Source of the DNA: a virus
Lineage: Duplodnaviria > Caudoviricetes
Direction: 5' to 3' (one strand)
Length of the DNA: 64,000 nt
IMG/VR virus record: IMGVR_UViG_3300044856_000241
Location: 64,001-128,000 of that record
The translations under genes were made by a program, and so were the position numbers. This document shows, in pieces, positions 5,977 through 63,754 of the stretch (position 1 is its first letter; every line of letters starts with the position of its first letter). Below the pieces are notes generated by a model. It was given only the letters and a program-made list of their open reading frames with translations. It searched no databases and was not told where the DNA came from.

Positions 5977-6014
5977 TTATGTATTCTCTCCTCTCTCCAG
6001 ATGAAAACAAACTT

Positions 6015-6614
6015 TCAGACGTACAGTTGATACTTCCTGCCAATCTGATCGATCACTCCACTATCCATCGGTTTAAAACCAATTACAGTAAGCGTCCTAC
6101 CATTTTCTTCCGGTTCTAACTCGGTATAGCAGTTATCATGGATCAACCAAAAGTCTTCATTCTCAACCATTCCCAAATCTTCTGCCATGGACTTAGCTTT
6201 CAGAAGCTGATTTTTATTCTTCGCTCTAAGAACACACTTTGTATATTCTCCACACATCCATTGCTCGTACAAATTTTTGTCAATAGTAAATTCTGTCTTG
6301 TAATGACTTACAGTTGGTTCATCCACCATTATTTGTTTGCCATATGGATTCTTCTGATTTGCCGGCTTATAATAAACCCATCTTTTACCATTCTGTCTTG
6401 TAATCTCTGCGAAATCATCTAAATCTGGATGTCTATACCATTGTGGTTTGCCGTCTGAACCATACGCCCTCAAAATCTTCTCATTAATGATCTTCGTCAC
6501 ATTATATCTAATCATTTGCATAAGAAATGCATTAGACGCATGACTTACTTGCACAGCCAATTTTTCTGGTGACATTTCCAGGTCTTTTCTTGCTATAATA
6601 ACTTGTTTGTACAT
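6015..6614 (-). CDS. pth2: peptidyl-tRNA hydrolase, Pth2 family, with large insertion
   Basis: KQVIIARKDL.MS..KLAVQVSHAS, KCVLRA, IHDNCYTE..TLTVIGFKP. Confidence 0.85.
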   Translation of the reverse strand: MYKQVIIARKDLEMSPEKLAVQVSHASNAFLMQMIRYNVTKIINEKILRAYGSDGKPQWYRHPDLDDFAEITRQNGKRWVYYKPANQKNPYGKQIMVDEPTVSHYKTEFTIDKNLYEQWMCGEYTKCVLRAKNKNQLLKAKSMAEDLGMVENEDFWLIHDNCYTELEPEENGRTLTVIGFKPMDSGVIDQIGRKYQLYV

Positions 6615-7127: not shown

Positions 7128-7171
7128 ATTTACTCACCACCTTATATACTAAATCTGTTTCTGCTATTTAC

Positions 7172-7762: not shown

Positions 7763-7764
7763 AT

Positions 7765-8217: not shown

Positions 8218-8305
8218 AATCTTTTACCTCACTTTTTATAATCTAAATTTACTCTGTAAACGTGTTCTGGACAAAGCGTATATCCGCTCTATACTATGTG
8301 ATTCT

Positions 8306-8770: not shown

Positions 8771-9445
8771 TTACTTGTCCTCCATCTCTTTCTTTAACAT
8801 GTTCAGATCATTCTGATAAGAAGCAATCTGCTTCTCTAAATCTTTTATTCTCTGTCGCTTTGCTTCTTCTTCAATATGCGCCTTCAGTTCTAAATCATCT
8901 TTATAAAAAGCATCTTCAAAGTCCCAGTAATCATGCTCATCGCCATTCCATACACCATTATCTACGTCATAACACTTGTATACTGTTACCGCTGGTGCAT
9001 CCCAGTCACAACCATGCCCGCAACATTGATAATCCTCATTGTAGTCTTCATCTCCAGGCTGACATTCACAATAACCCAAATATCTCTCATCGTATGAAAA
9101 ATGGATTTCATAGTGATATTTTTTGAGTTCTGGGAAGATCATCTGCTCGTCTAACCAAACATCTTGGCGACGACTTGAATCATTTTCATCCCACAAGTTA
9201 ACGCTATAAATGTCACCATATTCATTCGGAACAATCTGATATGAATATTTATCTTTTATGTCATCAAAAAATTCTTTGTATTTCTCACCATGAAATTTAA
9301 ACTGGTTCCATAGAGCCGCTATGTAAAATGGAACAGGTGCTTCATATGTATTCGGATTTGATTTATTTACTTCGTTCCAGTCTGCTATTTCTCTAGCCAG
9401 ATTATCTAAGAATTTCTGACCAATTGCATTGCCACAATACTGCAT
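8771..9445 (-). CDS. hypothetical protein (Cys-rich cluster CEC..CCGHGC)
   Basis: Start refined to MQYCG with RBS AAAGGAG; the upstream part of the track ORF overlaps the ncRNA. Confidence 0.7.
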   Translation of the reverse strand: MQYCGNAIGQKFLDNLAREIADWNEVNKSNPNTYEAPVPFYIAALWNQFKFHGEKYKEFFDDIKDKYSYQIVPNEYGDIYSVNLWDENDSSRRQDVWLDEQMIFPELKKYHYEIHFSYDERYLGYCECQPGDEDYNEDYQCCGHGCDWDAPAVTVYKCYDVDNGVWNGDEHDYWDFEDAFYKDDLELKAHIEEEAKRQRIKDLEKQIASYQNDLNMLKKEMEDK

Positions 9446-9475
9446 ATTTTTATATTCTCCTTTGCAATTTGATAA

Positions 9476-9651
9476 AAATGCGGGTGTGGATTTGCACCAC
9501 ACATGAATGTTACCATTCTGATTGTCGGTTTCTAAGGATGAAGAACCATCGTGCTCCCAGTTAACATCCGGGTGCTATTCAGTCGTACAATTAAGTACAT
9601 TTCTCGCTTACTCGAAAACCAATCTATGTTTACCTATTCCATCACCGCATT
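9476..9651 (-). ncRNA. tRNA-like RNA (class II cloverleaf) with ~95-nt insertion in place of the anticodon loop
   Basis: AATGCGG/CCGCATT acceptor; ATG-GAATAGGTAAA-CAT D arm; GATTG/CAATC stem; GAATG-GTAA-CATTC variable arm; GTGTGG-TGCAAAT-CCACAC T arm. Confidence 0.75.
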
Positions 9652-9658
9652 GGATTAA

Positions 9659-13969: not shown

Positions 13970-13970
13970 C

Positions 13971-14934: not shown

Positions 14935-15177
14935 TTACATATTCTCCGTACTAAATCTTACAGAACGCTCATATGCATATTCTCTAATTGTGAGACTTTT
15001 CACCTATCAGCCAAAGACTGATGGGATTGCGAGCCTGATTTTTTCCTCAAGATTCTTAATAGAAATAGAACAATCACTCACTGCCTCGACTAATTCTTTC
15101 CTCTTCATATTTATATATTCTCCTTCTATATTTTTTAGAAATGAGCTGACTAGCTATGACACCAGCCAACTCTGAAA

Positions 15178-20501: not shown

Positions 20502-20580
20502 TTGTGCTCTCCTTTTTATTTTTATATGTTAATTGATTACATATCTATATTCTCTACTGTCTTTTGAAATATTCGTTTCA

Positions 20581-22297
20581 TCAGTACTCAACAATCTGGC
20601 ACTCTACACTTTCATCAGCTTTCTCAATTGAATCATAACAAATGATAATTTCTGGATTCCAATTAGCTTCGTCTTTATTCGGACTTTTAATTCCACAAGC
20701 ACACCAGTTTGGTTTGATTTTGTCACACTGTTTGAGCAATTGTTTTAATGTAATGTCTTCCGGTGCTTCCGCTAGAAAAGCAATATCACAACCGTTCAGC
20801 CAGAATTTAATCGTGTCAGCCATTAACACCACCGGCTCCTTCCATATAATCTATTCTCTATTGATTCTTTCAAAGTATTAATAATCCACTCAACATTATT
20901 CTCATCTTCGAACCAAGTTTCAGTAATTTCTTCTAATGGCAAATTAATGCAGTCTAACTCTTCTCGTACTTTACTTCGTAAACCGTCTTTTACAATCTCT
21001 CTCAGCTCCTCATTAGAAACTGATTTTGCTGCTTCACGAAATCTATCAGCAATCGGTTTGAGTGAAATATAATCTTCTGTTTGTTTACTCATTTGTTTCC
21101 TCTTTTCTCATAGACAACACATACGGCGTGTTTTTGAACTTAAGTTGATATTCTCCGCTTTCACTATGGACTTCTTCTCCATATTTTTGGATGAACCAAT
21201 CAAATACAGCTCTTATTGCCATATCTGTTACATCTTCTTTTTCTCCAACCCATTCGTCATCCTTAAGCATTCCACAATAAATCGTTCCTGTGATTGGACT
21301 TACACCCATTGATTTTCCTGAATTATTGTTCATAATTCTTTATCCTTCAATCGCTTTTTCAAGTTCTTATTTTCTTCTTCCAAAACTTCAATTTTTTCTT
21401 CCAAGATGTCATTATGATTATCAACAACAGCTAATTCATCTTCTATATTAGATAGAGCATATTCCAAATCCACTAAGTTAGATTCCAACTCTTCATATTC
21501 TTCATCAGTGTGTTCTGGAATTATTTTTTCAATAATATCTGCAAGATCTGGATTATAATAGTCTCTAACAACAGAAACTACGTCGTCCAAATCTTGCACA
21601 GACAACCAAATATCATTCACAAGTATCATAGTTATGTATTCTCCTTCGGTTTTGTCATTCTTGAGAGATATCCTCTGATCAGAATTTCTTTCAAATCATC
21701 TCCATGAATACTGGTAATATCACAGAATACTCCAAGAATCTCTGTTTCTTCATGAGTCATCGCATGATAATTACAACTGTCTCCAACTTGATTATCACTC
21801 AATTGAATCTTATTGTCTGTAAACCAGTTGTTGATTAACGCGTTGATTAGCCTTTCTGTAACTATATAAGACATAATAATCTACTCCTTATTCTTGTTCC
21901 CATCAAACCACCAGTCACGAAAATTCTCGGCACACATATTTTTACATAATTTATCTGCACTGGCATTAACTTCTCTTCCTCTAATTTTAATTGATTCTTC
22001 TTTTATCGTAGTGTACTTATCTTCCATATCTAAGTTCACACCTTCAGTAATTATGTTCCAATTGCCTGTTCCTGTGAATACTGGTTGACGTTCTATATAG
22101 AACCATCTTTTGTATTTTTCTTTTGCTTCTTCATCATTTGTTGCATAAATATATTTCACATTTCGGAAAATACTATAATCGTCATTTTCTCTATTTTTCT
22201 TTAAAAATGCTGGTTTATTATAAATAAAACTTTGATGTGTGCCCACTTCAAAAAGTGGCATAATTATCACCTCTACTTCCTTTATAAAATGTCTCAT
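20581..22297 (-). CDS. run of six small hypothetical genes (20581-20832, 20823-21092, 21085-21333, 21330-21629, 21632-21874, 21881-22297)
   Basis: Overlapping stop/start junctions; no recognisable motifs. Confidence 0.6.
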
Positions 22298-24018: not shown

Positions 24019-24218
24019 ATTCCTTTATTTATGGGGATTGCGCAATCTCTTTATCCTAGGTTTACCAATTTCCTTTCTTATTGATTTTTAAAAATGTGAA
24101 AATTACTGGCACTGCAGCTGCCAGAATAAAAATGAAATTTAATTTGAATTATTTAGATCAATATTGATATGCTAATAGATTGATATTTTCCACCCAATGA
24201 AAAACAAATTTCAGCTGA

Positions 24219-27200
24219 CTATTTCTCCGTCAGTTCACTGACAAAACGATAAAATTCTTCTAATTTACTTTTTGGAATACTAACTTTCACATCTTTCCAA
24301 ACATCGAGACTGTCAAAATATTCTTTGATTTCTTTCTGCTCTGCTTCCCAGTCAATATTATTACTGCTATATAAATCCCTTAACGAATCTTCAAGATAGT
24401 CCCCATCGCATCTATTCCACCCACACTTTGCATATTCTTCATCTGTATTCCATTCACTTTGGATTTCAATGTCTCCGTGTGTGTCACTATATTTTCCATC
24501 TAACTCACCACAATATCCTCTTTCTGGGAAAATATCTTTAAGCTGTTCATATGAAGATTTCTTAATCCAGATATTATCTTCATAAGTTGCATTACTATAA
24601 TATGATTCTCCATATAAGCAAACATTTACTAATTCCATACTTACTTCTCTCCTTTATTCTCTTTCAGTGCTCCAATAGCTCTGAGTGTCTGTACTGCACA
24701 AATACGTGCAGAAATCGGATCTAAATTTGCTTTCTTAGCAAATTCGTCAATGAAACGATCCATACCTTTATAATAAGCATCTAAATTATAATTCTTTGAC
24801 ATAATTACTCATTTACCTCTTCAATTTTGAATTCCATATCATCATAACTTGCATCCTCAAGCGAATAATCATCCAGCTCAAAATCAAGATAATCAGTGTA
24901 TCCTTCATTTTTCAATTTATTTAAAGCATCCTCTTTTGACTCTGCTTCAATAATACCTTCTCTGTGACCATATCTCAGATACCCCATCACATACTCGGCA
25001 TCCTGTGTTACTCTAAATTTTTTCATCTAATATTCCTCCCTACATTTTCAATAATGCAGCAATGTCATCCAATTCTAGCTCTGTTTTCTTATCCTCGGAT
25101 AACAGTTTGTCCAGTTTTGCTTCCATAGCTTTTAATTCATTCTGTTTCTGTTTTATTTCATGAATCTCTAATTTTTTATTGATATCACTAATCCAATCAT
25201 CCAGACTGTATCCAGAAATTTTGAAATCAGTAATCTTCATATCAATTACTGCCATTTTGTATGTATACAGTTGAATTTTTAGAAATGTTAAAGACTCATC
25301 ATTTAATACATTCAGATTGTAAGTTGTCCCATCCAGTATAAGAATACAATTTGTCTCTGGAGAAAACTTTGTATTTTTCTCCATAAGTGCAGTTTTCTTC
25401 TCGTCAATCTGCTTTTTTAATTCTAAAATTCTGTCATCATTCTTACTCATCTTTCAACTGTCCTCTCTTCTTATATTCTCTGCCATTTTGCAAATACGTT
25501 TGAACATATTCTGGTTTCATTTTTTCAAAAATCTCCTCTAACGAAACTGGGATCATTTCCTTTTCTCCATATTTATTTGTTTCAAATGGAAAAATATCGC
25601 AAAATTTGTGGTTCCACATGCTTATTTTTTCATATATAACATATCCAGAACCCGTCTTACTTTTACGTATTTTATAATCCTTATATTCTCCTAGATATTT
25701 ACTTATAAAGAATCCATAGCCCCAATAATTAAAGTTATCTCTAAATCCATCAATTGTGTATGAAGCAATTTTATCTTTCGTTTTATCATATGGCGAATAC
25801 TCGGAATCTCCTTCCATTTTATAAAATAAATCAGCATAATTATCATTGCACTTATCATCTAAGCAATCAATAATCTTATTTTTAGGAAAAGATTTTTGAT
25901 GGAAAAAGTAACTACCATCATAGAACCAATAATGTTTACCTTGTGGCTGTGGATCATAATGTAAGCCACTATATGCATTAAATCGCCCCATATAAATCCA
26001 ATGTTCATTATCTTTTGTAAGATAAGTTTCACCAACTACAACGTCTTTTGCAGATATCATCTTATTCTCTTTTACTTTGTCACTATATGAAACCATCTCT
26101 TTATAATCTGGTGATTCTACAGGAATAAGCACTAAGTCCTTGCCGTCCCATCCATAGATAAGTTCACCCTCAATACCCTTTCCTTTGATACATGAAGTAT
26201 TCTCCAGAATATAAAGTAAATTTTCAATTGTAATTTCAAATTCAAATCCGCGCGGATCATACACGCGGCAATATGATTTTCTTACATCCCAACCCCAAGA
26301 GTTCTCAACTCCACCGGCATGTTTATTCAGAACAAAGCCTTCTGTTGGAATATTTTCAAATTCATCATTTGGAATATTTTCGTCTCTCCATCCATTCCAG
26401 GACTTCTCTTTTCGTAATACACCTTTTTCATCCCAGTAAATTACATAAGCCAGTTTTCCGGTATATGTATCTTGGCGTTGCTGATATCCGACATTTATTT
26501 TCTTCGGAATATATATCGCTGACTTCATTTATTTTTCACCTCTATTTAATTATTCTCTATAACTTTTATGAAATTTTGAGCGAACTGCTCATAAGATTTA
26601 ATACGGTTTCCGTCTGCATCCAAGATAATCCGGAAAGAAAGAAGTATCATATGTATCTACAAAATCATCATGACAAATTACACCATGCTCCAAATCGTTC
26701 ATCCAATTGATTAATTCATGCAATATATTATCAAACTGATCTGGTTCAGGATAATATACAAAACCAATGTCATAATCATCATGATCATGTAAAACTATTT
26801 GAATTGTATACTCTGTATCACCCCAGGCATTTTCTTTTTCTTTCCATGCTATAAGTGACATCCATGTACGACCACAAAATAGATCTGGTCTGTCAAAATG
26901 TATATCTGCTACGACTCGTAAAAATTCAACATTGAACTTTTTATGATACGAATGTCTAATTATCTGCATTTTATTTCTCCTGTAAATTCATAACATTCTT
27001 TCTTGTTCTCAAAAAATGCCAAAATTTGTTCTGCTCTTATGTATCTACGCTCCCTATTCTTGCACTTTACAACAAGAAGTTCAGATTCCAATATTGTATC
27101 TTCAATCCAGCCGTGCATGATTTTATTTATTCCTCGTTGCTCAAATGCGATCCATTTCCCAACAAATGTAGAATAATCTTTTTTAACAATATAGCCATGA

Positions 27201-29437: not shown

Positions 29438-31318
29438 TTATTCCTCACTTTCTTCCTCTGAAACAGATTTTTCAAACGGCTCAATATATTTCCATGCGAT
29501 AGGTTTTCCAAAATCCTGTTCAAGATACTCTTCGTCGATTGGATTAAACCAAACTTTTAATGTAAGATTTATGTAGGCAACAACTGGATTCTCATATTCT
29601 TCTGTAATAACTAAAACTTCATCAGAAAAAGTATGCCCATATGCATGATCTATTTCCGGCAAATCATCCGGATTTTCTCTCAAATCATGCCATCTATATT
29701 TATCAACTTCCTCCAATACTTCAATAGCTTCCTCAATGACATAATCCTCTTGCTCTGGAAATACATATCTCATACCATAAGCCCATGCAGGAGCACCGAC
29801 CATGCCGGCATAATCTTCCTTTGGATTTTGTAGACTTCTTAATAATTCAATCGTTTCCTTCAATTCCATTCTCTTCTTATTCATCTCCAACATCTGTTTC
29901 TTTTATATCCCAATCTAAATATTGTCCACACCAACTACAGTAATATGAACCATGCATTGTAAGATAAGCCCCGCATGTAGGACATGTCCCTTCCATGGTA
30001 TATGGATTACCATTTAAATCCTTAATTACTTTCTTATCTTCTACAGGCTTTGCAATCTGTTTGTCATACACTTCACAAAAATCTTCATCATCATTTCCAA
30101 TCAAACTTTCAAATTCGCTTAATCCACCAAGTGCAGCGTTAAACGCATCTCCACCTTCTTCTTCCTGTACATTATCTAATACATGTGCAGCGGCGATTCC
30201 ACAGTTAAAGTAAAAATCAGAATTATGCTTATATCCTGAAATTCTCTGCTCCATCTCTTCTAACGGTGTGACTTTATCTGTATTCCAACTATATGTAATC
30301 AATCGATCTGCTTCACGTACAAATCTTTCATAATAAATATCTGGGCATCCCATGTTTTTCACATCCTTTCATTTCACAATATCAAAAACAGTCTTACTGT
30401 CAATTTCTCCAACCATTTCAAATACTTTCTCGACTGGATATCCTGCTCTCAGGAAATTATTAATTTCTCGAAGATAATATAAATATTCTTCTATAATAAA
30501 ATTGTCCGAACACTTCTTTAATGCCACTAATATCGCTTCATCCATTGTCTTTTCGTCAGACAATTCAGCAATTTTCATCAACAGGTATCCTTCTTCCCAT
30601 CCAGTCTTCTGTTTAAACTGTTTGACCCGTTCTTCTGCTAACTTCCTGATTTTATTAGTAAGACCAGTTACTCCTTTGATACGTTCATCAATCCAATCAA
30701 AAGAATTATTCTCATTAGAATGTTTGTCACCATGTCTGATATATTTTTCACCTGTTGCGCTGTTACTTTTTCTATTCTCTGCTATACTATCACCTCACTT
30801 TCCAGATGAAAGATTACTTCTATCTTTTCCATAAATTTCAGACAATTCGTTCCATACTTTATCATCACCATTGAAGAAGTCTTCTATATCTTTTTGTATC
30901 TCCTGTAATTTTGTCAACGGACACCAATCTGGCTTCTGTAAATAATATCCAAATTCTGTTTTAATCATCCTATATAATGACGGATTGTATACATCACCCG
31001 CCAATTCGCAACAAGAATTCAATCCTTCCCCTAATTCTATACGAAATTTACAACTGGAACAATTTTTTGGATTCTTTGTAACTGATATTGTTTTACTCAT
31101 CGCAAATCCTCCAACTCTCTTTGAATTTCTCTCTTCGTTTCCTTCCGGAATTTCTTTTTGAAAATTCTCCGATTCTTTTTCTTCATTTTTGACCAACCGC
31201 CATGATTATTAGCCCACGTTGCTAATCTTCTGCTAAACCACGACTGACATTTATTGGAGAATTGTCTTCTGCTTATTTCGGATCTCTTACTCATAATTAT
31301 TCTCCTATCAAAATCCAT
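29438..31318 (-). CDS. run of hypothetical genes (29438-29893, 29877-30362 with Zn ribbon, 30369-30581, 30795-~31100, 31097-31318)
   Basis: ORF packing; CPTCG..CSWCG in 29877-30362. Confidence 0.55.
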
Positions 31319-33814: not shown

Positions 33815-34886
33815 TTCACCACCGCCAAACATCCACATTTATCACACATACATAACTTACCGGCGATTGCTACAAATCCGTTACCTGTTTTCTTATAAAT
33901 GTCACGCTCGAATTCATTGTAGTTATCTCCTGTTCTATATACAACCGGTTGCATAATCTCGTGACACACAGGACATAATCTTGTACTTTCTGCCATAATT
34001 ACACCTACTTTCTATCTTCTACAGGAACAATAATTCTAATGTTTGACAGGATCTGCCGGATGTTCCACAGCTCACCATTAAACTCCTCATCCGTTTCAAT
34101 AAAATGTTCTGCCAAATCCTTAATTGACACTGTTTTATCTGTATCCAACATGTGTTCCACATGATCAAGATCCCAATCTGAACGTTCGTACAGTCCAGTA
34201 GACGCCAAATATTCTCTCATTTCTTCTTTTGTCATAAATTGTTGCTCCTTTGAAACTGCCGTTTCTACAGCTCATCAAATTCATTTTCTAACTTCTCAGT
34301 ATATTCATCAATCCACTTTTGTAACGCTGCCATCGTACTATTAGACATTCCGGCAGGAATTGAGATATTACTAAGAAGTTTGACGTCATAGTCGATTCTT
34401 CTTGCTTTTTCAAACGCTTCATATGTCATTTCAATTCGTCTCCTTTCAAAATAAGGGTTGGTCAGCGTGAAATTACCAACCAACCCTGTTATATTATTCT
34501 CCGAGTCCTGCAATCATTTTATCTAGGTCTTCATCTGACATATTTTCTAACGCAGCGTCCTGGCGTTTTGCTTTAATCTCCAGAAGTCTCTGTTTCATTT
34601 CTTTATTCTTCTTTGCTTCTTCTCTTGCCTGCGCTTCAGCTAGTTTCACACCTACAATGTATTTCACAATCTCGATTTTCTCTGAAATTTCCTCGTCCTC
34701 TTTTGTTCTGGTATGGAGAAGGCTCTCTTCCTCTGACTTTTTCACTTCCTTATTTAATGTCTTAAATACGGAGTCAAGTCCTGTTACCGGAAGAGTCCAC
34801 AAATCAATCACATTGATCATACCTTTGTACGGGAACTGATAATTGTTACGTGTCGCTTTTTCAAATAAATCACTCATGATTTTCAT
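33811..34886 (-). CDS. four small hypothetical genes
   Basis: ORFs 33811-33996, 34005-34235, 34265-~34429, 34494-34886. Confidence 0.55.
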
Positions 34887-45311: not shown

Positions 45312-46289
45312 TTATAATCCTTTTAACATCTCTTTCATACCAACGGCACCATTTGAGTAATTGTTAACTGTCGTTGTCATGGATGTATGTCGTAACTGTT
45401 GCTGTGCAAATGCAATATTACCGGTTGTTCCAAGAAATGTGGCATACCAATGTCTCATCATATGTGGTGTAATTCCGTTTCCGTTATATTTAAATAACTC
45501 TTTAATAGTACTTTCGGTAACACGACTCCCTTTCTTAGTCAAAAACAAAGCCTCGCTATCAGGTTCCATACTTGCCCTAAGTACGATCCATTCACTTAAT
45601 TTCTTTGCTGCACTGTCAGTTAGAAAAACATCCTTCTTTTCAATTTCTCTATAATCTCCTTTACCAATTACACTGATATATGGCATGTCATCATTGAGAT
45701 GGATATCTCCTAAATCTAATCCGGCACACTCAATTTCTCTTATTCCAGTCCATTTTAATGTATAGAAAATTGCTAGATTTCTAATGCGCCAAAAATCATC
45801 TTTTCTGTTAGCTAATTTCTGTTCCATAGAATCCATTTGTGAATCGGTTGGCAGTTTCTTAAATAATCCATTTCCAGTTGACACGCCTCTGTATGATACA
45901 CTTCTTACAATATTATAATCAACTGGACATTTTCTACTTCTTACTAAATACTCCCAGAAACTACTAATTCGATTCTTTTCTGTTCCAAGCGTCGTTGGGG
46001 CGATACCGTTTGTTTCTCTTTCTCTTAAATACATCGTCACATCTTCAGCCTCAATCTCCAGGAAGTCTTCCGGTTCAATTTCTGAAATACTATCCTTTTT
46101 AATCAGTTTCTTTTCAATCGACCAGTTCAATAACTGTTTAATTGTAGCCCAATATGTGATGCAACTTGATTTGCTTTCCAAATTGATAAAATACTTCTGA
46201 ATAAACTGTGGAACACTATCTTGCTCAAATCTTCGCTGTAAATTTTCTTCATTTTTCTTCTGAACTTCATCTTTGTACATTCTGATCAA
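45312..46289 (-). CDS. tyrosine recombinase (XerC/D-like)
   Basis: RNLAIF..TGIREIE, GKG, TPHMMRH, LRH, Y in NNY: R-K-H-R-H-Y intact. Confidence 0.93.
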   Translation of the reverse strand: MIRMYKDEVQKKNEENLQRRFEQDSVPQFIQKYFINLESKSSCITYWATIKQLLNWSIEKKLIKKDSISEIEPEDFLEIEAEDVTMYLRERETNGIAPTTLGTEKNRISSFWEYLVRSRKCPVDYNIVRSVSYRGVSTGNGLFKKLPTDSQMDSMEQKLANRKDDFWRIRNLAIFYTLKWTGIREIECAGLDLGDIHLNDDMPYISVIGKGDYREIEKKDVFLTDSAAKKLSEWIVLRASMEPDSEALFLTKKGSRVTESTIKELFKYNGNGITPHMMRHWYATFLGTTGNIAFAQQQLRHTSMTTTVNNYSNGAVGMKEMLKGL

Positions 46290-48089: not shown

Positions 48090-48544
48090 CATGTAATAGC
48101 AAATCAATTACCAATTATGCCTTTGCTTTCTCCAAGCTCTCACGAACGAGCCTCATTCCTTCTTCTTTCTCTTCTTTACTATATCCTACCGCATTAAGTG
48201 CTTCTAATGCTCCGCATTCTGGACAAATTTCAGAATTATCAATTCTGGAAATAGCCGGTATTTCCGTATATTCTTTCCCGCATTTAGGACAAATTTTTGC
48301 TATCTTATTCATATTTTTATTTTTCTCCTTTTGAAATGTCTGTTTCGTTATCTTTAATCTTATCTCTTATCATATCTATACACTCAAAAACCATATCTTC
48401 TGGAATTTGATTAGCAATTTCTTCTACGTTATCATATGTTGCTCCTATACAATAAGCAATACAGCAAGCCATTTCGCTACACATCTCGATTGGATGTATT
48501 TTAATTTTATCTATTTCCATAATATATTCCTCATGAAAACAATT

Positions 48545-49078: not shown

Positions 49079-49448
49079 TTGTATCTCCCTTTTCTCTTCC
49101 TATTTATGAAAACAATCTTTCATTTATAATAAAGTCTACTATGTACTTCGCTACATGGAAAATTTTTTCTTATTGACTTTACCATTAATTTCGCATAAGT
49201 CTTTAGTCTTATTATATCATCAATGTCATCAGCTTTAGCAGAACAGATATGAATAACTTTATGTTGTCCTAAGTGACAACTTTCTTCTTTATTAACTGTA
49301 ACTACAACTTGTATCTCACATTGAGACATTTCCCATATTTCAATCCATATCCAATTTGGAGTAGGATACATTTTTATTTCTTGTATAACCTTATCATCAG
49401 ATAGCAATATATTCATAATACCACTCTCCCCATGAAAGCAATTTTTCA

Positions 49449-50034: not shown

Positions 50035-51558
50035 TCAATCACCTACTTTTTTAATCAAGTTTAAACCTCATTCCCATACATCATCATTATCAGCCAAAGA
50101 AGCATCAAATTTAAAATTATAACCTGTTTTATTCTTAACTATTTCTATTGCTTCATCATAACTTGTTGCTCTGATTACATAACAATAACTTGATGTGTCT
50201 TCTGCGTATTGCGGAATGTCCTTTACGATATATAAGTTCTTCTTCGTTTATTTTTCCTCCATCCAACGATCAGCAATAGTTTCCAATAAATCTGTTGTAA
50301 ATGGAACTGTCCAAGCACCAGAAATTCTATTGATATATTCATCTGCTGCCTTTCTCAACTCGCATCCTTCCGGAATAACACCTGTCTGTTGAAAATCTTT
50401 ATATTGCTGATAATACGTCTTTAATTCACTGTCCGTTGCGTTTTCAAAATAATTATAAAAATAAATTTGTTCTCCCATTCATTTCTCCTTTAATTATTAA
50501 TTACTTAGCTAATAACAAGATATCATCCCTATTAAATTCTACTAATCCATCAGCTTCTATAATATCTGCTAATTTGCAAACGATTTCTTTTTTCGCTTCA
50601 GAATTCCAATTTAAAAGTTCTCTCTTTATCCGCTCTTTTCCATCCATCTTACCAATATAATAATCTTCTAAAGTCATGAAGAAAAAATCATACTGATTGC
50701 CAAACATAGATGGTTTATTCTTCATATCGTTCAGATCCTTTAAAGTCTTTTTGTTTTTCATCTAATCACCTACCTGTTGAAATCGTTATTTCTTAGTTGA
50801 AAATAAACTGAAAGTCTCTATCATTTATTTCCACTGTAACAAGTTGTTTATTGTTGTCAAGAATATCTACAACCGCACTTTCATATTTTGCATATGCTGA
50901 TGTGCATTTATATTCCTTACCCTCTGTAAAGTGGTCGTCTGTTTTTCTACAAATAGCTTTATTATTTTCCATTTTTCTATCTCCAATCATCGCAAGAAAG
51001 TCGAATTTCCAATTATTTAAACTGCTTTTATTCTTCCTCTTCTCCATTCATAATTTCTATAATATCATCTAAATAACACGTATCTTCAACACATGGTTCA
51101 TTAGAAATTTCAAGTTCTTTATTGTTAAAATCAAAATTAAGATACATTCCATAATTGACACCACCTGTATTCACGGTTACATTCCAATCCCACATATCCA
51201 CGTCTGAATTTAACTTCTCAAAGCAATATGCCAATGCATTAACTGTATTATCAACATCTACTGAATATTTTTTCATAATAATCTGCCTCCTTTTAAGACA
51301 TGAAAGTTAAATTTCAACACATTTAAAATTTAAAATATTGACCAGGATAAGCATCCATATGTCCGAAACATACATTATCAAACCAAAGATATCCTTGATT
51401 ATCCCATGTAATTGTTTCCCCTTTTTCGATATGGACTTCTTTATTTACATTATTATTCTCTTTAGTAAATCCAATACCATCAAAATCTTCTATACATACT
51501 GCTGTACTCATTTTTACAGTCTCCTCTCATAATCATCTGAAAGTTAAATTCCTTTGCC

Positions 51559-52321: not shown

Positions 52322-52883
52322 GTAAACTATGATAAAACTTTATATTTCATGTTTCTTTACATATGACCATGTAATATATTCTGGCGGTTGACCACAGATT
52401 TTAAACATTGTTACATTCTTACACCCAGATCTGATCAATCCATTTGCCTTTATTCTACCCTGACTTATATCATCAAAGTCGTCAAAAATCCAAGGTTCCG
52501 TTTCCGTAAATCCATTTCCGATTTTATCATTATAAGCAACTGCATACCTTTCGTTTTTCATAATTTATTTTCCATTCCATTTTTAAAACCTAGATTTCTT
52601 CTAAAATTGTCGCCACTCTGCTCATAATTATTTGTCTTTTATGGTTCTCAAAATCATTTTCTGCTCCTGTATAGCTATAATCTGGCAACCATCCTCTAGC
52701 AATATTTCTGATTTCTTGTGCTAATTCATCATTTGTCATTTCTGAAATTTCTTTTGATTGAGCATCATAATCTTCTTTATCATATTCCGTTACTGTATAT
52801 GTTCTCATATTTTATTATCTCCCTTCGAAAACTTGGTTTCAATCTATTATTTTATATTACATTATTCTCTGTCTACTTGCAAG

Positions 52884-52918
52884 AAAACGGTCTGCCAAAA
52901 ATAAGGCAGACCGTTTTA
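52884..52918. terminator. intrinsic terminator
   Basis: AAAACGGTCTGCC..GGCAGACCGTTTT. Confidence 0.8.
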
Positions 52919-52921
52919 TAT

Positions 52922-53536: not shown

Positions 53537-53915
53537 AATATTTGTCCTCTCTTTCTTATCTTATACTTTCTTATCTTGTTAACTTCTCTAATTTATTTTG
53601 ATATCTTGTTACCCAACGTCGGGCACTTATAAATGTTTTACATTCCACAAAATATGGTATATTCGGATCTAATGTATTAGACACTCCGTACTTGCCTTTA
53701 TAATTCTTTTCAATATAAACTAATTTTTCTCCAAATTTAGCACACCATGTAGTATGTTCTCCATTTTCGTCAAATTCTGTCATTACGTCCCAATCAAATT
53801 TCATTTATATCACCCATTTTCTTAATTATACATCGAATGTTGTCTAATTTCAATACTTTTCCCATCTAATTATCAGACAATATAAGCTAAATTTCCATTT
53901 GAAATTCATCTTTCA

Positions 53916-54266
53916 TCAGTTCCATCGATTTCTAATTTTTCCGTAATCAATTTGCCCCATAACCTGTTCTCTGTACCACTCCAACTCATGTGCTTGGCTG
54001 CACTGGTCACAATAATCATCCAGATCATCATAAAATTCTTCATCATCTTCCAGATACCAATCCATCCATTCGTTTTCCGTTTCATCAAACATCTGAAGTC
54101 CACCGGTATTTGCAAAATCTGGTTTAAGATTTTCCTGTAACTGGAACATATCGTATGCTGCTAACATATCAATTACTTTTTTACCCTCTTCCGGTGACTC
54201 AACCGGAACATAAAATGTTTTGCTTGCTCCTACCTGTGGAATCCACCATACTCTCAATTTACTCAT
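53916..54266 (-). CDS. P22 gp17-like (anti-exclusion) protein
   Basis: KLRVWWIPQV..FYVPVES.EEG..LAAYDMFQ..KPDFAN.GGLQMFD. Confidence 0.7.
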   Translation of the reverse strand: MSKLRVWWIPQVGASKTFYVPVESPEEGKKVIDMLAAYDMFQLQENLKPDFANTGGLQMFDETENEWMDWYLEDDEEFYDDLDDYCDQCSQAHELEWYREQVMGQIDYGKIRNRWN

Positions 54267-55035
54267 TATACTCTACCTCTCTTTCTTATCCACAATATGC
54301 TACATCGCAATGATCAAACACTTTTATCATATTAACATTATAATGCTCTACTTCATCTGCCGTAATCAAAGGTTCTTTATATTGATGATAGTCGAACTGC
54401 CGGAATCCATATCTCGGATCATACTCACCAGCATACCATCCATCATCAATTTTGTCGACCTCTAACTCACAATTACAACTCACCCATGATTTTGCTTCAT
54501 TAATAATACTAATAAGTTGAAGCTCTTTTCTGTTGAATTTTTTATTTGTCATTATAATACCACCTTTCGTGTACAACAAAACGCCCACCTTAGTATTCTC
54601 TATACCAAAGTGGACGTTCCAGTTTTAATTTATTGTTCTTTTTAAATTTCAATGTAGTCTTTTTCAGGAAGAAAAATCTGCGAATTCCCAAATATCACCA
54701 CCAGAAATCCATTCTCCTTCATCATCGTATTCGTTTTCTTCTACGTAATATTCAGTCACCTCATAATATCTTCCATCACTGTCTCTTTCATAAAATGTGG
54801 ATTTGAAATCTTTTAATGCATCTAATGCATCTTCTTTTTTGTCAAAAGTCTTTAATATACATGGACTTAATACAAATCGTTCGTCAATATTTAACGTGCA
54901 TCCAGGTTTAATATCTTCTTTTTTATCAATAGCAACTGTATTTCTTCTTAATTCATATACCATTATACTACCTCCTCTGCTTTATAATTATATAACTATT
55001 TATGTTTTTCCACAACAAAAAAATGTTAAATTTCA

Positions 55036-55587: not shown

Positions 55588-58500
55588 TTACACACCTAAT
55601 AACTTTCTTATGAACTGTTTAATATTTACAGAACCTTCAGATACTTCACGTTGTTCTTTCCGTTTCTGAATTTTCATATAATTCAGTTGTACGTCAGCTT
55701 CCATATACTCTTGCATCTGAACAGGAGTTAAACTACTATACGGTGTGCTCATTGATGTGTCAAATATATCTACATCTCCATTATGAATAATTCTAAATCC
55801 AAACATTTCCATTATACAATCTCCTTTGCAATACTGTCATCCAAGTAATCTTCCTGTCGTTCTCCAAATGGAATATGCAGATCGCCAACAACCTGGAACG
55901 GAATATTATTTGATTTTAGCAGCTGTTCAAAATAATCTCCAATGCACAATGTATTATCTTCAGCCTCCAGGAACATTATGCTTGCTAACCGCGCATATCT
56001 GAATACTGCTGTTTCGCTTTCTTTAGGAATCATATATACAACCGGCTCTACACCATATTCATCTTCCGGTTCCAAATCATATGTACCATCAAAATCTAAT
56101 ACAAAAAATGTTCTGATCATTATTCATCTACCTCACTTTCCATTCCTTCAACTACAAGATCTAACAGTTCATATACTTCATCTTCGTGTTCTGTCATATA
56201 TTTTGCAAAACAATCATAATCTGGTTTCTCATTATTTTCTTCACAATACTCATTGTATCTTTCCCACATTGTATCTTCTACAATATGTGAATTGAATTCT
56301 TTTCCTTTATATTCCAATTCAGGATCTGCCCATGCGCCATGCCAAATAAATCCTACTTCCGGTAATCCATACCAATCTGGATATTCAACCGGTACGATTA
56401 AATGTATTCCTTGTTTTGTTATAATTGTTTTTCTTAATGTACTAAACGTAATTATCAACCTCGCTTTCTTCCAATAAAATAAGAGACCGGATATTTCCAG
56501 TCCCTTATATATTCTCTTTTGAAACCTTGCATTCATTATTCCTCAACCTCAATACAAATTCTGTCTCCATCTAAGGGGAATATATATGTTAATTCTTTAT
56601 CTCCATATTCTTCAATCTTTTTCCATATATCGTCTGCGTTTCCATCATAATAGATTGAAGCCTTGTAACCACTTCCGCAACTCTGAATTCTGACACAACC
56701 TTGTACGGTTACATTTTCTAATAAATCACGTAATGTCATCTTAACAACCTCACTTCCGTTCTTTGAATTTAATTCCGTTCTCTTTTAAGTATCTAATTAG
56801 AGGTTGAAAATATGCCTCTGGCTCCAGAATGTTCGGAACATTTTCTCTTGCCCATTTCAGTTTCTTTGATGTTATTTTACCTTCGTTAATTAAATAATCC
56901 AGTTCCATCATATGCAACTTATCAGCAATTTCCAAGTCGTATTCTTTATACAAATAAGTTGATGGAAGATATGTAGCCCACGTATCAATGTTTTCTAATC
57001 TTAGTTTGAGCTTCGCTACTTTAGATTCGCTTAACTCAGCAAGCATCTGAATTGCTTCTTCTTCCAGATTATTTTCTGTAAAATACCGTTTAATAATACT
57101 AATATCTGACGGACGTTCTATATATGGAGCATTCACCAATTCTTTTAATGTTACTGCCATTTTTATCTACCTGCCTTTCACTGATATATTCTCTTCGCTT
57201 CCAATACGAAAAGCAGACAACCTAAGTCATCTGCTTTTCATTAATACATATAATCAAGTAAGTTATTTACTTCACTTGCTGCCGTTTCAATACTGTTAAT
57301 AGAGGTCACTGCATATGGTTCAGTTTCTCTTAAATAATCCGCAAGTGCTTCTAACATATCCGCTACAGCATTCACAACATCATCGACACCACATTCGATG
57401 TCATTGTCTTTTAAAATCTGTTCATATTTTTCTTTCATAATTTTCTCCCTTCGAAACACAATTTTCATTTACTTTGTAACTTTGTATCCTCTTTTTTCAA
57501 TTTCTGTAATCAAATCTTCGTCGGTGTATGATTCAAAATTATAATCAACAATTCCGCTTTCTTCCAACCAGCATTCATTTTCTGGATCAAAAACAAATCG
57601 CCAATTACAATTATCATCGCCAGAATATGTCATTTTACCTTCTTTGATATATGGTACCAAAGCATTTAAAAATATAAGTGTTTCATCTTCATGATATTTA
57701 TCCGTATCATAAATAGAAATCTCATTTTCATTAACAATATCAAATTCAAATTCAATTGCACACAACTCGTCCAATATATCGTTAAGTATTTCTTCAACTT
57801 GTCTAATATTTACGCCATCTTTAAATGTTGCAATTCCATCTCCATTTGCATAATATCCTACGATCTTATCCTCTCTTTCTACCATCTGAAATGCAGTTTT
57901 CATTTCCTACATTTTTATATTAAATGTCCTATTACTGCAGGAAACACATCAAATTTTGTACCTAAAACTGTTTTGATTTTATAATTTTTATTTTTTAAGA
58001 AGTTTATTAAAAATTGCAATTTGTCTTCTTTCTTAATATTTTTTATTCTTTCATCTAATTCTTCATAATGAGTTTTTTCTAAATATCCATAAAAGACGAC
58101 AGCAGTTTTAAGTTCTAAGATTTCAATTGCATCAATCATAATGTTCACCTCCCAAAAAATATGTTTTCATTCTTTCTTCACTTCAACTACTAACATATAT
58201 TCTTCATAATCACGAAAAACAACATAATGTTCGCATCTATCAATATTAAAATATTGTGCCATCCTTTCGTCTATTTCTGTTCCATCAAGTTCTTGCGAAT
58301 ATGATTCCGCATAATAAAAGCCACCTTTTTGTTTGACCAAATATAGCGAATTATTATCAAGAAGATTTCGCAACGTCTCTTCCGCTTCTTCTTTAGTTAA
58401 AAGCCATGAATTTTGCTTTATCATAATTTTCTACCTCCTTGAAATGTGCTTTTCATTTGTTTTTATTCAATATTACTTTTGCCATGCTCCAATCTTCACT

Positions 58501-61500
58501 ATTGATTAGCTTGACAACTTTTTGAATTATACATGCTAACTCTATATCATAAATTCTATAATGGAAAGCTGCACTGACTTCATTTCTATTACCATGGAAA
58601 TCTATATATCTATTTATATCTAAATTACCATAGTACATGTCCTTTGGTGTTGTAAAATGATGTTTTCTTTCAATAATCTCCTTCAACATTTCTAGTGGAT
58701 TATTATAAAATCCGTTAAACTTAAAATATTTCCCTTCGTTTTCTATCAACTGATCCTTTCTTGTTTTGTTCTCTTCTATCTTCCATTTATCGTCAGGCTC
58801 TCTTCGATTGAATACAAAGAATTCTTCTCCATCTTTTACCATATATGTAGGGTAATAATAGCAACTTCCTGTATATGGACTATCATCATAATATCTTTCT
58901 TTTTCTATAAATTTAATCATAAAACCGTCCTCCAATTTTTAATTTATTAGTTTGTCAAATCCTATCTTATTATTCTCTATTATGTTGTACGAAAAAAGCA
59001 GATATCGTTTTGATATCTGCTTAATTACCATCTGCTTTTATTTTTTTTTCTTTTCTATCCCTTAACAACTGTTACTCTAAAAGGTGATCCATTAGGCAAT
59101 AATGTATGACCTAAATTAATTTGCATTACCTTTTCGCTCGCTTCAGATTTCTTTTTGAAGCATATAAGTTTATCTATTTCTTGATCTGGGTTTTTAGAAA
59201 CTGTATTATCTGTCCGTAAATATCCAATACATCTACCATCATTTTCACAAGCTGCTAAATAATACATAATTAATTCTTCCTATCTTTCTCTATATCTTAG
59301 ATAATTCATATCATCAAAGTGACATCCTGCCATTGCTTCAGGTGTATCTAAATCATCATATTCAATTTCTGCATATGTTCGTGGAAGGAAACTGTCACTC
59401 TCACTTTCAAAGTCATCCCAATAAGGACATCCTTCTTCGTCATTTACATAGTATCTTTCGGTTTCTTCTTCCGTCATATCATTGTATCTTGCACACTCTG
59501 ACGTTCCTGTTGAGTAATCGTGACAAAAATATTTGCAGTTTTTACATTTTCTCATTATGCAACCCTCCATCCGATTTCTTTTTTCAACCGCTCTAATTTT
59601 GCATTTATCCAGGATTTCTTTTAGTTTTCCGTTGATAAACTCCGGTTTCTCTTTCCGCACCAGTGCATTGTATATTCTAACACATTCCTTTATATCAATC
59701 AACGATACTTTAATGCCTTTTATATTTTGTCCGTCTAACCATTTTTCAATCTACCCTCTTAATTTTTTCATATAACTCATCTCCAAATCAACTTAAATTT
59801 TCCGTTTCATAGATTTATCTTGTCCTTACACAAGTTGTAGATAATCCCCTGCAATTCTTCCATTTCCGTTTCTGAAAGATATTCACTTCTGCTAGATTCT
59901 GGAATGTCATAGATGTTGCAACTATCATTTTCAAACCAAATTTCAAAAACATAATGCCACATTCCATTATTACAATTGTATTCACAGTGGATAAAATACG
60001 GATCATCTTCTTTGTCAACCAGTTCTCCATCTCCAATATCTAAAGCAAATGAAGTATCGTCATTCCAATATGAATTACATTTAAATTTTCTTCCATTATC
60101 CCAATCTATCTCATTGAGCATATTTTCAGTTTCTATATATTTCACTTCTATCACTCCCAATTTTGAAATTTTAGATTCATCAGAATTCGATAGTTGCATC
60201 TTCTGAAATATTGTCACACATGTATCCTTCGGATTCTAAATGCTCACATACTACACCAACAATACTGTCAGTATCATACTCTCCGTCATTTTCTTTCTTG
60301 TATTTTTCAATTGCATCTTTTGTTCTTTGAATGATTCCATTCGTTAATTCCTGTTTACCTTCAACTTGAATCATTGTTTCTACGTTTGTACCACAACCAT
60401 CCACATCTACATCAATAAGTTTAATAATCTGTTTCATAATATTTGCCTCTTTTTCTAATTTTGAAATCTACGTTTCAACCTATGTATATCCTTACAACCC
60501 AGTCATTAATCTCGACTGCATTTGGTGTTTGTTTCAAGTTGTTTTCTGTAAGCGGCAACTCACCCCATACGCCATATTCGTCTAACAAATGAACCTCTTT
60601 ACCTTTATTTTCTTCTATAATCTGTTTAACTGTTTTTTCTACCATATTTCCTGCCTTTCTAATCTAAAGGAATGCGAATTTCAAATACTACTTCCATTCT
60701 TACATATATTCGTTCATTTCGCGTTCCATATCTTTTTCATATTGTTCATTCCACCATGCAGCATCTTCTTCCCATTCCTTTTCCCTTGTTTCCTTTTCCT
60801 GTTCAAGATTTTTAATCTTACCTTTTATAAAATCTGGAATATAAATGTGCTTATATATCGTAAGTGGATTATCAAATCTTGTATAATCATCATCTGTCCA
60901 TATAATGAAACCACCAAAAGGAAGAAACTGTACCTTATCTCCTTCACTAATTACTAAAGCACACGAAGCTGATAAATCAAGGTGAATTAAACTCTTCATT
61001 TTAGGATACATATATTTTGCATTATATGATTCCTTATCAGTTTCATAATCTCTTCTAAAATGATGTTTTGTAACACAGACATACTTGCTATACATAAAGA
61101 ATTTCTTTTTTACCTTGTACTTATATTCTCCATTCTCATCTCTCCATTCTTTATCAAGCTCACTTCGAAATCCCATTGGATTAGTCTTACATTTTACTTC
61201 TGTAAGATCTTCCGATAAAGCTCTGTAGAACTCAAGCATTTTGTATTTATCGCACATTTTACGTAATTTTTCTAAGACTTTTTCAAAATTGTCTTCTGTT
61301 ACAGTAATTTTTCTCATATCTGTTACCTCCGTTTCTTCTAATGAAACACGCATTTACTGCGTAATCTTTCCATTATTTTTCATTTCTTTTAATTCGGACA
61401 AAGCTGAAATCATCGTTTTATGCTATTTTTTGTCTTTACTTAATTGTGTTATATATTTCATCTCTTTTATCCCATGCAAAAATTAGAATATTTAACAATT

Positions 61501-63754
61501 CTTCTGGTAATTCAGATATATCCTTTATATTCATACCTGTCAGCATAAATTCGTTTTGCTTTAGCCATCTAACCACCTCATTCTGTTAAAATATATCCAT
61601 TTTCTAACATTTCTTTGATTACTATCTGTGCATATTCATCGGTCTTTGCATCTTCATCAATATATTCCACTGTACCATTTGCTAAATCTAATTTTGCAAT
61701 AACCATACCTTCTTCACTATCGTTATTTGTTTTCCATGCATTGACTATATACTTTTCTTCCTCTTCATTGAAGAAGTCGCATCTAATATCTCTCCATTTA
61801 CCCATAATTTTGTCTCACTTTCTAAAACATTTTTGTGTCATTACATTAAATAAATCTGAAATATTATTAACCGATTCCTTTGATTTAATTAATGTTTTAA
61901 CATCATCAACGCTCATTTCTTTTATTTCCATAAGAACCTCGTTTTGCTGTTTTAAATATTCATTTTCCATTTGCAACTTTTCTATTTCATCACAGTTATC
62001 ACAAATTTTCTTGTGTAAGATTTTATTAGCTTGTTCCAATTCTCTAATTTTCTTTCTCCACTCAATACATTTATTTTCAAAATGCTTTTCGGCAGCATCA
62101 AATTTCTTTCCTTTTGGCATATACTTTCCTCATAAACTTATCGTTTCATCATTACAAAATATATTCTCCTGTTTCTAACGATTGTGGTATTAACTGCACA
62201 TAATCTGGATGGCTTACAAATTTTACATATTTCAATATGTATTCCTCTACATTGTTGAATTCCTCTTCGTCCATTTCATTCGCATCTTTCAATCCAAGTT
62301 TGAATTTTTGTGAAACATTATTTACTGCATCCTCAATTGGATAATATTTTTTACTCATGATATTCCCTCCATTTTCCATTTGAAAATCTTGTTTCATACT
62401 TCTATTCTGAAATCTCTTCCGTAAAACAACCGGACTGATAACAATTACTCGGTGCTTCTCTTCTGCCTTCAAAAATGTCATTCTTTACAATTTCCTCAGC
62501 CTCTTCTTTATTATTTGCTTCTACTTCATAATTTCCACTGTAACATTCGCTATAAGTAACTAAATATTTTTCATGTTCAACACAATCCTTTCTAATTAAT
62601 CTCTCAAATGATCACTACCGGTGGAAATATTCTCGTTTTCCATTCCATAACAGCCTTTAATTTTCTTTGTATCTCCATTATCTTTCCATGAAATATATCC
62701 ACCATAATGATATTTAACTGCTTTTACTGCTTTTTCCCATGAATACTGTACCTTCTCATGAGTTTCAACATACTCGTCCCATAATTCTTTTGCCTTATCT
62801 AATGATTCAGCAACAACTATATAATGGAACACAACACAATATCCATCAGCTGTCCATCTAACTATGAATTCTCTCATTGTTCTTCACCCCACAATGCTTT
62901 ATATGCTTTAATAGCAGCTTCTCTTAATTTCACTTCCCAATTTTCATCTGAGAAATCAATCTCATATTCGTACCATTCCTGACAACCGTCGTGTTGCCAA
63001 TATCCGTTTTCATTTATAGACAATCTATAAAATGCACTACAATATTCTGTTTCTTCCGTTGAGTTATCAATACAGATATTATAATCAACCGCCTGTTTAT
63101 CGTTTCCATATTCTACATCACCCCAAGAATCATAATCTTCATGATTTATTATGGTTTCTATAATTTCATCTTTATTTACATCGCATCTATATGTAAATTC
63201 ACTCACAATACTCACCTCGCTTTACCACGGAAAACAGTTGTACAATTCATTATTTTTAACTTCATCCATCTCAAATAAATACGCACCACTATCCCAATAG
63301 TCTTCGTCATTATCAACAATCGTCCGTTTTGGATATTCTTTTTTGAAAATTACTTTTGCTTCGTCATAAGATTTTGCAATGATAATTCCTTTATCACCTT
63401 CACTGTTCTCATATGCAAATACTTTCTTCTTTTTAAACATAATCATACCTCCACAAAATCTTCGCCAAGTTTTAATCCCAACGGATACTCTGAATCATAA
63501 TGATCCGTTATACCCCATCCATTGTAATAATCATCTTCGACTACATCTTGCCAATTAATATCATTTTCTATATCCTGAACTGTCGGAAGATTTGTTTCAT
63601 CCGCAGTATCAATCCCCGCATCCAGAATTTCTTTCCGTTTCGCTTTTAATTCTGTAATGTACATTTCGCACAATTCTTTACCGCGTTCTGTAAGTTTGAA
63701 TTTCATATTGTTACTCCTTTGAAAGTTTTATTTCTACTGTATTATTCTCCATAA

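Follow-up and report, generated by a model that had tools for sequence, protein, structure and literature searches.

Junctions between small accessory genes of a large phage genome carry many copies of a short palindrome, TGAAA-N6-TTTCA (TGAAANNNNNNTTTCA), and by comparing sequences with those of related phages we have shown that such palindromes are shared linkers and preferred crossover points for the exchange of gene modules among these phages. The stretch under study, hereafter the window, consists of bases 64001-128000 (64,000 nt) of the single 203,624-bp virus record IMGVR_UViG_3300044856_000241, and its minus strand carries every gene of the window. For comparison, 160 related loci were collected by two protein-anchored scans of IMG/VR; their source contigs are large viral contigs, mostly of about 90-220 kb. 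Complete or whole relatives, with record lengths of about 45-211 kb, were coded G001-G036, the present phage being G000, and 20-kb related loci were given L numbers. Because many of the related records are proviruses by class or end beside an integrase, the phage family is temperate. Nucleotide similarity between the window and the relatives is patchy and tracks single genes.

Gene exchange at the palindromes

The palindrome itself is real and its spacer is strictly 6 nt. Fifteen perfect copies were found in the window, for which 100 dinucleotide shuffles gave an expectation of 0.44 and a maximum of 3, and 32 sites have at most one mismatch against 11.1 expected; a first-pass annotation of the same stretch had counted 12 perfect and about 20 imperfect copies, which is slightly low for the perfect ones and about right overall. 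The whole genome has 26 perfect copies at spacer 6 and only 0-4 copies at any other spacer from 0 to 14, and in the 160 loci the N6 palindrome occurs 217 times compared with 2-23 times for other spacers. The inverse arrangement TTTCA-Nx-TGAAA stays at background level across the genome, and among 5-N6-5 palindromes TGAAA alone is enriched, both in the genome and in the relatives. Counts of the perfect 16-mer over whole records are bimodal: most of G001-G013 have 18-31 copies, G008 being an exception with 8, and G014-G036 have 0-6.

Spacers are non-random, with 131 types across 695 intergenic sites and a few dominant classes, and they are nearly unique within any one genome. When the 160 loci are compared, one and the same 14-16-mer, spacer included, is found to join many upstream genes to many downstream genes. 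For example, the 77 sites of the class GAAA-AATTGC-TTTC have 23 flank types upstream and 17 downstream, which occur in 44 combinations and give 27 four-gamete quartets; four-gamete positives were obtained also for the classes ACTTCG (16), TATTTT (6) and GCGGAA (3).

The places where homology between two phages ends were mapped in an all-against-all comparison. The maximum of rightward ends is at positions 13-17 of the 16-mer, that of leftward ends is at positions -9 to +2, and about 5-6% of all homology ends fall at the element, within 0.7% of the sequence. The outer bases locate the crossovers further: position 1 is monomorphic in 40 of 47 upstream-flank clusters compared with 19 of 45 downstream clusters, and position 16 conversely in 28 of the 45 downstream clusters compared with 20 of the 47 upstream ones. 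The outer bases therefore travel with their own flank, and the crossovers lie within the element, between positions 1 and 16. The idea of the first-pass annotation that breakpoints of gene gain and loss among relatives coincide with the sites was borne out by these pile-ups at the 16-mer edges.

The order of the spacer classes along the genomes is 100% consistent for 72 class pairs, while the distances and the gene content between sites vary; an example of the order is CAAGAT/G, CGATGA, CGTAGA, CGGAAA, AGCACA ... CCAAGT, TTTAAC, AATTGC, GATTGT. Exchange therefore looks allelic, i.e. an in-register replacement and not a cassette capture. Combinatorial flanks, breaks at the element edges and the fixed spacer order together identify the sites as slot-specific linkers for in-register module exchange, and the earlier proposal of mobile cassettes holds for the shuffling of genes at the sites, not for cassettes of the capture type. 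The fraction of junctions broken between relatives is 0.80-0.87 for motif junctions, 0.56-0.64 for motif-less junctions of equal length and 0.2-0.4 for tight junctions. Since the motif-less junctions are also mosaic, exchange is promoted by the motif but can take place in its absence.

A gene may be found on either side of a given spacer class. A 239-aa gene precedes the TTTAAC site in the present phage and follows it in L137 and L141, and the 62-aa gene at 51323-51511 has, in relatives, a TTTAAC-type site on its 5' side, on its 3' side, on both sides, or other sites instead. Single genes between two sites with the same spacer were found in the window (51301 and 51538) and in loci L139, L138 and L133. 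When alleles lacking the enclosed gene were searched for at these four same-spacer pairs, both flanks were common to too few relatives. A crossover within the gene itself, which the relatives share, would account for the pair at the 62-aa gene, and the pair is therefore no proof of cassette insertion.

Placement and anatomy of the sites

Of the 15 perfect sites in the window, 13 are preceded on the sense strand by a stop codon and followed by the next Shine-Dalgarno sequence or start codon, and the stop codon frequently overlaps or abuts the site, just as the first-pass annotation had described. The remaining two, at 9095 and 38802, are intragenic. Sites are most frequent in the leftward block at 33-129 kb with its small genes; they spread over about 95 kb and reach the late region, whose blocks have few, and most of them adjoin small accessory or early genes. 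Two poor matches (2-3 mismatches) at 15173 and 22285, which the first-pass annotation had cited as bracketing whole modules, were left out of the counts. The perfect sites, together with one-mismatch and degenerate sites at junctions, are as follows in window coordinates.

6002-6017, perfect site whose sense TGA terminates gene 6015-6614; a Shine-Dalgarno sequence and the next start come after it
9095-9110, perfect match inside open reading frame 8771-9502; probably no functional junction site
20565-20580, perfect site abutting the stop of 20581-20832; GAGAATA follows 10 nt on, and then a P-type ATPase gene
24198-24213, perfect site a few nt past the stop of 24219-24638, about 180 nt upstream of a C5 methyltransferase gene
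29459-29474, perfect site in the final codons of 29438-29893, 28 nt ahead of the start of a Thg1-like gene
34251-34266, one-mismatch site, sense AGAAA...TTTCA; the stop TAG overlaps the left arm and a Shine-Dalgarno sequence comes directly after
37696-37711, perfect site in a junction of 29 nt
38802-38817, perfect match inside open reading frame 38654-38908; probably no functional junction site
48332-48347, one-mismatch junction site, sense CGAAA...TTTCA
49107-49122, perfect site of sense spacer class GATTGT, which comes after class AATTGC here and likewise in relatives
49433-49448, perfect site of sense spacer class AATTGC
50778-50793, one-mismatch junction site; homology to 17 relatives stops within it
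51301-51316, perfect site with spacer TTTAAC, flanking the 62-aa gene 51323-51511 on its 3' side
51538-51553, degenerate copy (sense AGGAATTTAACTTTCA) with spacer TTTAAC, on the 5' side of the 62-aa gene and directly past the 239-aa gene
52826-52841, one-mismatch site with spacer CCAAGT; the sense order is terminator, GAGAATA, site, abutting Shine-Dalgarno sequence
53900-53915, perfect site that directly adjoins the stop of 53916-54266, with a sigma-A-like promoter ahead of the next gene
56520-56535, one-mismatch site abutting a stop codon
57452-57467, one-mismatch junction site, sense ...TTTCG
57887-57902, perfect intergenic site
58440-58455, perfect site whose TGA terminates 58453-58935; its spacer AGCACA is known from relatives too, also in a version with TAAAA/TTTTA arms
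60164-60179, one-mismatch junction site abutting a stop
60462-60477, perfect site with spacer CGTAGA, whose order with CGATGA and CAAGAT is conserved in relatives
61405-61420, one-mismatch site with spacer CGATGA
62381-62396, perfect site with spacer CAAGAT, between a stop TAG and a Shine-Dalgarno sequence plus ATG
63720-63735, one-mismatch site past a terminator and GAGAATA, abutting a Shine-Dalgarno sequence

Outside the window, in the rightward late block, a perfect site at genome 180460-180475 lies 5 nt past a tRNA-like 3' end and is followed by another hairpin; the RNA-gene scan of the window found one tRNA only. Near-identical sequence at both record ends, either a repeated gene segment or a terminal redundancy, holds further perfect matches (genome 233-248 and 201920-201935), which appear to be inside coding sequence.

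For the consensus we used 541 distinct intergenic contexts from this genome and the 160 related loci. The result is the symmetric sequence A-W-GAAA-N6-TTTC-W-T, for which 87% of the contexts have A at -1 and 70% have T at +16, and the element is thus a simple palindrome of 16-18 bp. The site is close to both stop and start in short intergenic regions (211 contexts), and in long ones it is near the upstream stop in 94 contexts and near the downstream start in 126; 337 of the 541 contexts place it 8-35 nt ahead of a start codon. In relatives, sites are present also between convergent and between divergent genes, i.e. outside co-directional operons.

Within a genome the outer T/A pair changes independently on each side, half-sites decay separately, and there is no compensatory pairing; outside the 5-bp arms, pairing is only slightly more frequent than in shuffled flank pairings. 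The RNA hairpin has a marginal stability of -1.3 to -3.6 kcal/mol, a mean pairing probability in context of 0.45 (range 0-0.97) and no T run. Sigma-70-like promoter matches in the 46-64-kb part number 102 against 100.9 in shuffles, which agrees with the earlier remark that most sites lack an adjacent promoter. The symmetry, the independent half-site decay, the weak hairpin, the lack of sigma-70 enrichment and the convergent and divergent placement indicate a double-stranded-DNA element, conserved throughout the family, that would be read by a two-fold symmetric protein or by two monomers. These features point to a palindrome that is probably neither an RNA structure nor a sigma-A promoter.

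Variants in relatives add to this picture. The motif-poor group G014-G036 keeps the GAAA-N6-TTTC core with A/T as outer bases. In the most distant loci (L143, L146, L147, L148, L151 and L156; e.g. L151:1194 and L147:865), which are without TGAAA sites, aTAAAA-N6-TTTTAt is found at the same kind of junction, in 8 copies at N6 compared with 1-4 at other spacers, and some of these sites have spacers known from TGAAA sites elsewhere (AGCACA, TTCGCA). The TAAAA/TTTTA form is a symmetric G:C to A:T change in both arms, as is expected if the specificity of a dimer shifted, and it suggests that the arms have co-evolved with a putative binding protein.

A position-weight model built from the one-mismatch sites was swamped by the AT-rich background. 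The look-alikes cre (N4), parS, CodY and the ARG-box were rejected on spacing or orientation; other spacers and the inverse orientation are at background.

Two further signals, rho-independent terminators and a recurrent GAGAATA motif, share some of the junctions with the palindrome and stand on either side of it. GAGAATA is typically located directly past a terminator, 15-60 nt ahead of a start codon, and the intergenic stretches of the window in which it recurs are as follows.

63740-63797, GAGAATA motif
57170-57240, GAGAATA motif
58930-59054, GAGAATA motif
52842-52921, GAGAATA motif
54590-54663, GAGAATA motif
26530-26597, GAGAATA motif
20520-20564, GAGAATA motif

GAGAATA is a better candidate for a phage-specific promoter than the palindrome.

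Two other genes of the window may be mentioned. Within the accessory region, 3604-4716 is an IS605-type OrfB/TnpB gene (HTH_OrfB, OrfB_IS605 and Cas12f1-like TNB domains). The gene at 34900-36966 encodes a 688-aa protein without a Pfam match, about 60% identical to proteins of Bacillus Tsarbomba-like phages; it was tried as a taxonomic marker and rejected, since it has matches in more than 550 phage records of many hosts and unrelated phages and is uninformative for the host.

Proteins and processes that may act at the sites

We favour, with a probability of about 0.45, the explanation that the primary role of the palindrome is protein binding, as an operator or a roadblock, and that exchange takes place by short-homology recombination between allelic linkers. 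A dispersed protein-binding site, which the first-pass annotation had named as its alternative, appears to be the more likely primary function. The palindrome would bind a conserved, putative dimeric DNA-binding protein, which would contact the five conserved bases in each arm and leave the spacer free. In co-infecting or resident relatives the same 14-25-nt sequence would be found at the same slot, often as the sole homology between unrelated neighbour genes, and because the linker is often the only shared homology it would become the crossover point for short-homology recombination, a behaviour demonstrated for the PeSL motifs of T4-type phages (PMC2839356, PMC4122927). The outcome would be an in-register replacement of accessory genes with no integron-type capture, and a tyrosine recombinase encoded at 45312-46289 of the window, to which we return below, would not be needed.

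SPBRE of Bacillus phage SPbeta, which is bound by the recombinase-fold repressor MrpR, is a similar case (PMC10516654). As read from the SPbeta record NC_001884, SPBRE is (C)AAATACAAAAAATATGTATAT, i.e. ATACA-N7-TGTAT, and its copies in L164/L165 (NC_001884) are upstream of aimR, yopM, yopV, yonT, yonX and yonP; at yopM and yopV it sits directly 5' of the Shine-Dalgarno sequence. A 5-bp-arm inverted repeat at that position in a large temperate Firmicute phage can therefore be a repressor site. The two elements share the repeated 5-bp-arm inverted repeats in intergenic positions near Shine-Dalgarno sequences of a large temperate phage, and in both phages a recombinase-family gene of 325 aa is the neighbour of a small Xre gene in opposite orientation. 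However, SPBRE is constant over its whole length and has about 10 copies in promoter regions, whereas the palindrome has at least 26 copies with variable spacers, mostly in promoterless junctions. The 45312-46289 protein has its catalytic residues in place, whereas MrpR is catalytically dead, and no similarity of this protein to MrpR or YopP of SPbeta could be detected. A scan of SPbeta for TGAAA-N6-TTTCA showed no enrichment.

Another comparable system is that of mycobacteriophage L5 and other Cluster A phages, in which dozens of repressor sites are dispersed in short intergenic regions. These stoperators are reportedly 13-bp sites that lack symmetry, show a bias in orientation and are bound by the immunity repressor. 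Like them, the palindromes are dozens of sites in short intergenic gaps of co-directional arrays, often overlapping stop or start codons; unlike them, the palindromes are symmetric.

Several points weigh against the protein-binding explanation. The protein that would bind the palindrome is itself putative. An identity of 14-16 bp is short for efficient homologous recombination, and many independent exchanges have occurred at single slots despite it. If the site were purely regulatory, nothing but descent through the crossover itself would explain why the spacer is kept when the genes on its two sides change. Most sites are in junctions of 28-45 nt without a detectable promoter, and a repressor would therefore have to act as a roadblock, a mode of repression which is known from L5 but is unusual. 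Finally, the geometry and the half-site fit a Xer-type core site equally well.

This last point introduces the strongest rival, in which the palindromes would be dedicated Xer/dif-type sites, with two recombinase monomers on the 5-7-bp inverted arms and strand exchange across the 6-bp centre, carried out by the host Xer system or by an unrecognised phage enzyme. The partner of each site would be its allelic counterpart in a co-infecting or resident relative and not another site of the same genome, giving a programmed in-register reassortment; as strand exchange needs matching central regions, slot-specific spacers would make the sites heterospecific. That inverted arms around a 6-bp spacer are the geometry of tyrosine-recombinase core sites, as the first-pass annotation stated, is correct, and the strict spacer and the conserved inner arm bases next to it are as in difH/XerH and difSL/XerS, which share the half-site ...TGAAA(A). 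In difH, sequence-specific recognition by XerH is confined to the inner 5 bp of the arms, and the 6-bp centre is scarcely contacted (PMC5241119); the arms of difH end in ...ATGAAAA and those of difSL in ...CGAAAA / TTTTC... (PMC5357621), close to A-T-GAAA. Spacers that are slot-specific and nearly unique per genome, and crossovers inside the element, are also in favour, and at least one PF00589 protein is present in 36 of 36 related records. A precedent is given by the host-Xer-dependent pdif modules of Acinetobacter plasmids with their variable 6-bp spacers (PMC6449649, PMC7399989). The palindromes resemble pdif sites in having gene modules between sites with variable spacers (PMC6449649), but pdif sites alternate in orientation around the modules, whereas the palindromes form an ordered series of allelic slots.

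The phage's own recombinases speak against such sites. One is encoded in the window.

45312-46289, minus strand, Xer-like tyrosine recombinase of the Phage_integrase family, with R, HxxR, H and Y present

Its catalytic set supports the earlier description of the gene as intact, and among proteins of solved structure it matches XerA (E = 3e-14) and XerH (E = 1e-9) best. No homologue at E <= 1e-5 was found in the complete motif-rich genomes G003, G004 and G009, whereas motif-poor genomes carry homologues of about 50% identity. No palindrome, perfect or with one mismatch, lies within about 2 kb of the gene, and in the 20-kb loci motif density is not correlated with its presence. Since this phyletic pattern fails, the protein is unlikely to be the cognate protein of the sites, and it is probably not responsible for gene exchange at them. 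The genome has two other tyrosine recombinases, at G000:C1:24808-25935 (L161) and 167301-168332 (L162), and a search of it for serine recombinases found none. Each of the three is mosaic or accessory in the relatives, where identity is 25-64% or, in most, the gene is missing; no close orthologue of any of them spans the motif-rich G001-G013, and no tyrosine recombinase co-varies with the motif. Many relatives have an integrase at the very end of their record, in agreement with prophage ends. Bacterial genomes were also scanned for relatives of the 45312-46289 recombinase, with the aim of finding prophage ends, attP and the host, and none were found; a nucleotide search of the recombinase region against cultured phages gave no match.

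Other features also separate the palindromes from known Xer sites: the recombinase genes have no adjoining site, unlike the XerS and XerH modules, and conservation covers only 5-7 bp per arm compared with 10-11 bp. The 239-aa and 62-aa genes on either side of one spacer class would need events between unlike sites or inside genes, and motif-less junctions are highly mosaic too. On balance we regard dedicated Xer/dif-type sites as unlikely, though with an appreciable probability. Rather unlikely is also their more specific form, in which the family would carry some 25-50 heterospecific Xer-type sites, each set by its slot-specific 6-bp centre, and a host or unrecognised phage tyrosine recombinase would swap accessory genes only between allelic slots, without intragenomic deletions.

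An RNA element may be considered next, i.e. a hairpin 5' of the Shine-Dalgarno sequence in a polycistronic mRNA that would serve as a translational regulator, a processing mark or a 5'-end stabiliser. The 337 contexts within 8-35 nt of a start codon, the enrichment of G at +19/+20 on the sense side and the one site directly past a tRNA 3' end would suit this role. However, the marginal hairpin is often not predicted in context, the stem sequence is conserved and does not covary within the genome, and the TAAAA/TTTTA variant would be still less stable. In addition, 94 contexts are beside a stop only, sites between convergent genes have no downstream Shine-Dalgarno sequence, and an Rfam family search at the sites gave no match. 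An RNA element is therefore considered improbable.

A promoter for a phage-specific RNA polymerase or sigma factor would start transcription at the G about 3 nt past the palindrome, with the palindrome centre near -12, a position that the palindrome centre has in the hairpin promoters of phage N4. G is indeed present at +19 in 58-73% of contexts, also when the next start codon is more than 60 nt off. In short junctions, however, the transcript would begin inside or at the Shine-Dalgarno sequence; a stronger promoter candidate is GAGAATA, which follows terminators and may stand on either side of the palindrome; and some sites separate convergent genes. The polarity of a downstream GGA relative to transcription is mixed at the late-region sites, and these GGA are probably plain Shine-Dalgarno sequences. 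We consider a promoter quite improbable.

The first-pass annotation had preferred an integron-like system, in which the 45312-46289 recombinase would excise and insert single-gene cassettes bounded by the palindromes. Integron attC sites are imperfect palindromes of 57-141 bp with R''-L''/L'-R' boxes, recombined as folded single strands by IntI beside attI/Pc. The likeness consists in single genes bounded by imperfect palindromes, with a content shuffled among relatives, and an intact Xer-like recombinase and a few genes flanked by same-spacer sites could be counted in its favour. Nevertheless, this explanation is very improbable, because the recombinase has the wrong phyletic pattern and no adjacent site, the 16-18-bp palindromes have no attC-type structure and are dispersed over about 95 kb with no attI/Pc-like arrangement instead of being arrayed by an integrase, their spacers are tied to genomic slots and not to genes, the conserved spacer order indicates allelic exchange and not capture, and the same-spacer pair of the 62-aa gene can be explained by a crossover in the shared gene.

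Linkers in the evolution of the phage family

Phage genomes are mosaic, yet the molecular points of exchange are rarely visible. A precedent is the PeSL (promoter-early stem-loop) motif of T4-type phages, at which modules are shuffled by homologous recombination (PMC2839356, PMC4122927). Recombination between neighbouring PeSL motifs forms mini-circles. As in that system, a short conserved intergenic motif is found in hyperplastic regions of small accessory genes, and insertions, deletions and replacements among relatives break at the motif, which serves as the exchange point of sequences unrelated elsewhere. In contrast, PeSL is a composite of a sigma-70 promoter and a terminator, tens of bp in length, which recombines by ordinary homology; the present palindrome is only 16-18 bp long, has a slot-specific spacer, no promoter enrichment and a weak hairpin, and belongs to a temperate Firmicute-type phage. 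The idea of PeSL is thus extended from T4-type phages to an unrelated group and to a much smaller element.

In a large family of human-gut temperate phages (about 90-220 kb), a single palindrome of 16-18 bp with slot-specific spacers marks the repeated combinatorial exchange of accessory genes, which probably include genes for defence and counter-defence. It gives a testable handle on the linker sequences that were postulated by the modular theory of phage evolution. If the sites are substrates of a recombinase, they would constitute a natural set of orthogonal recombination sites; if they are operators or roadblocks, one protein could gate dozens of accessory genes.

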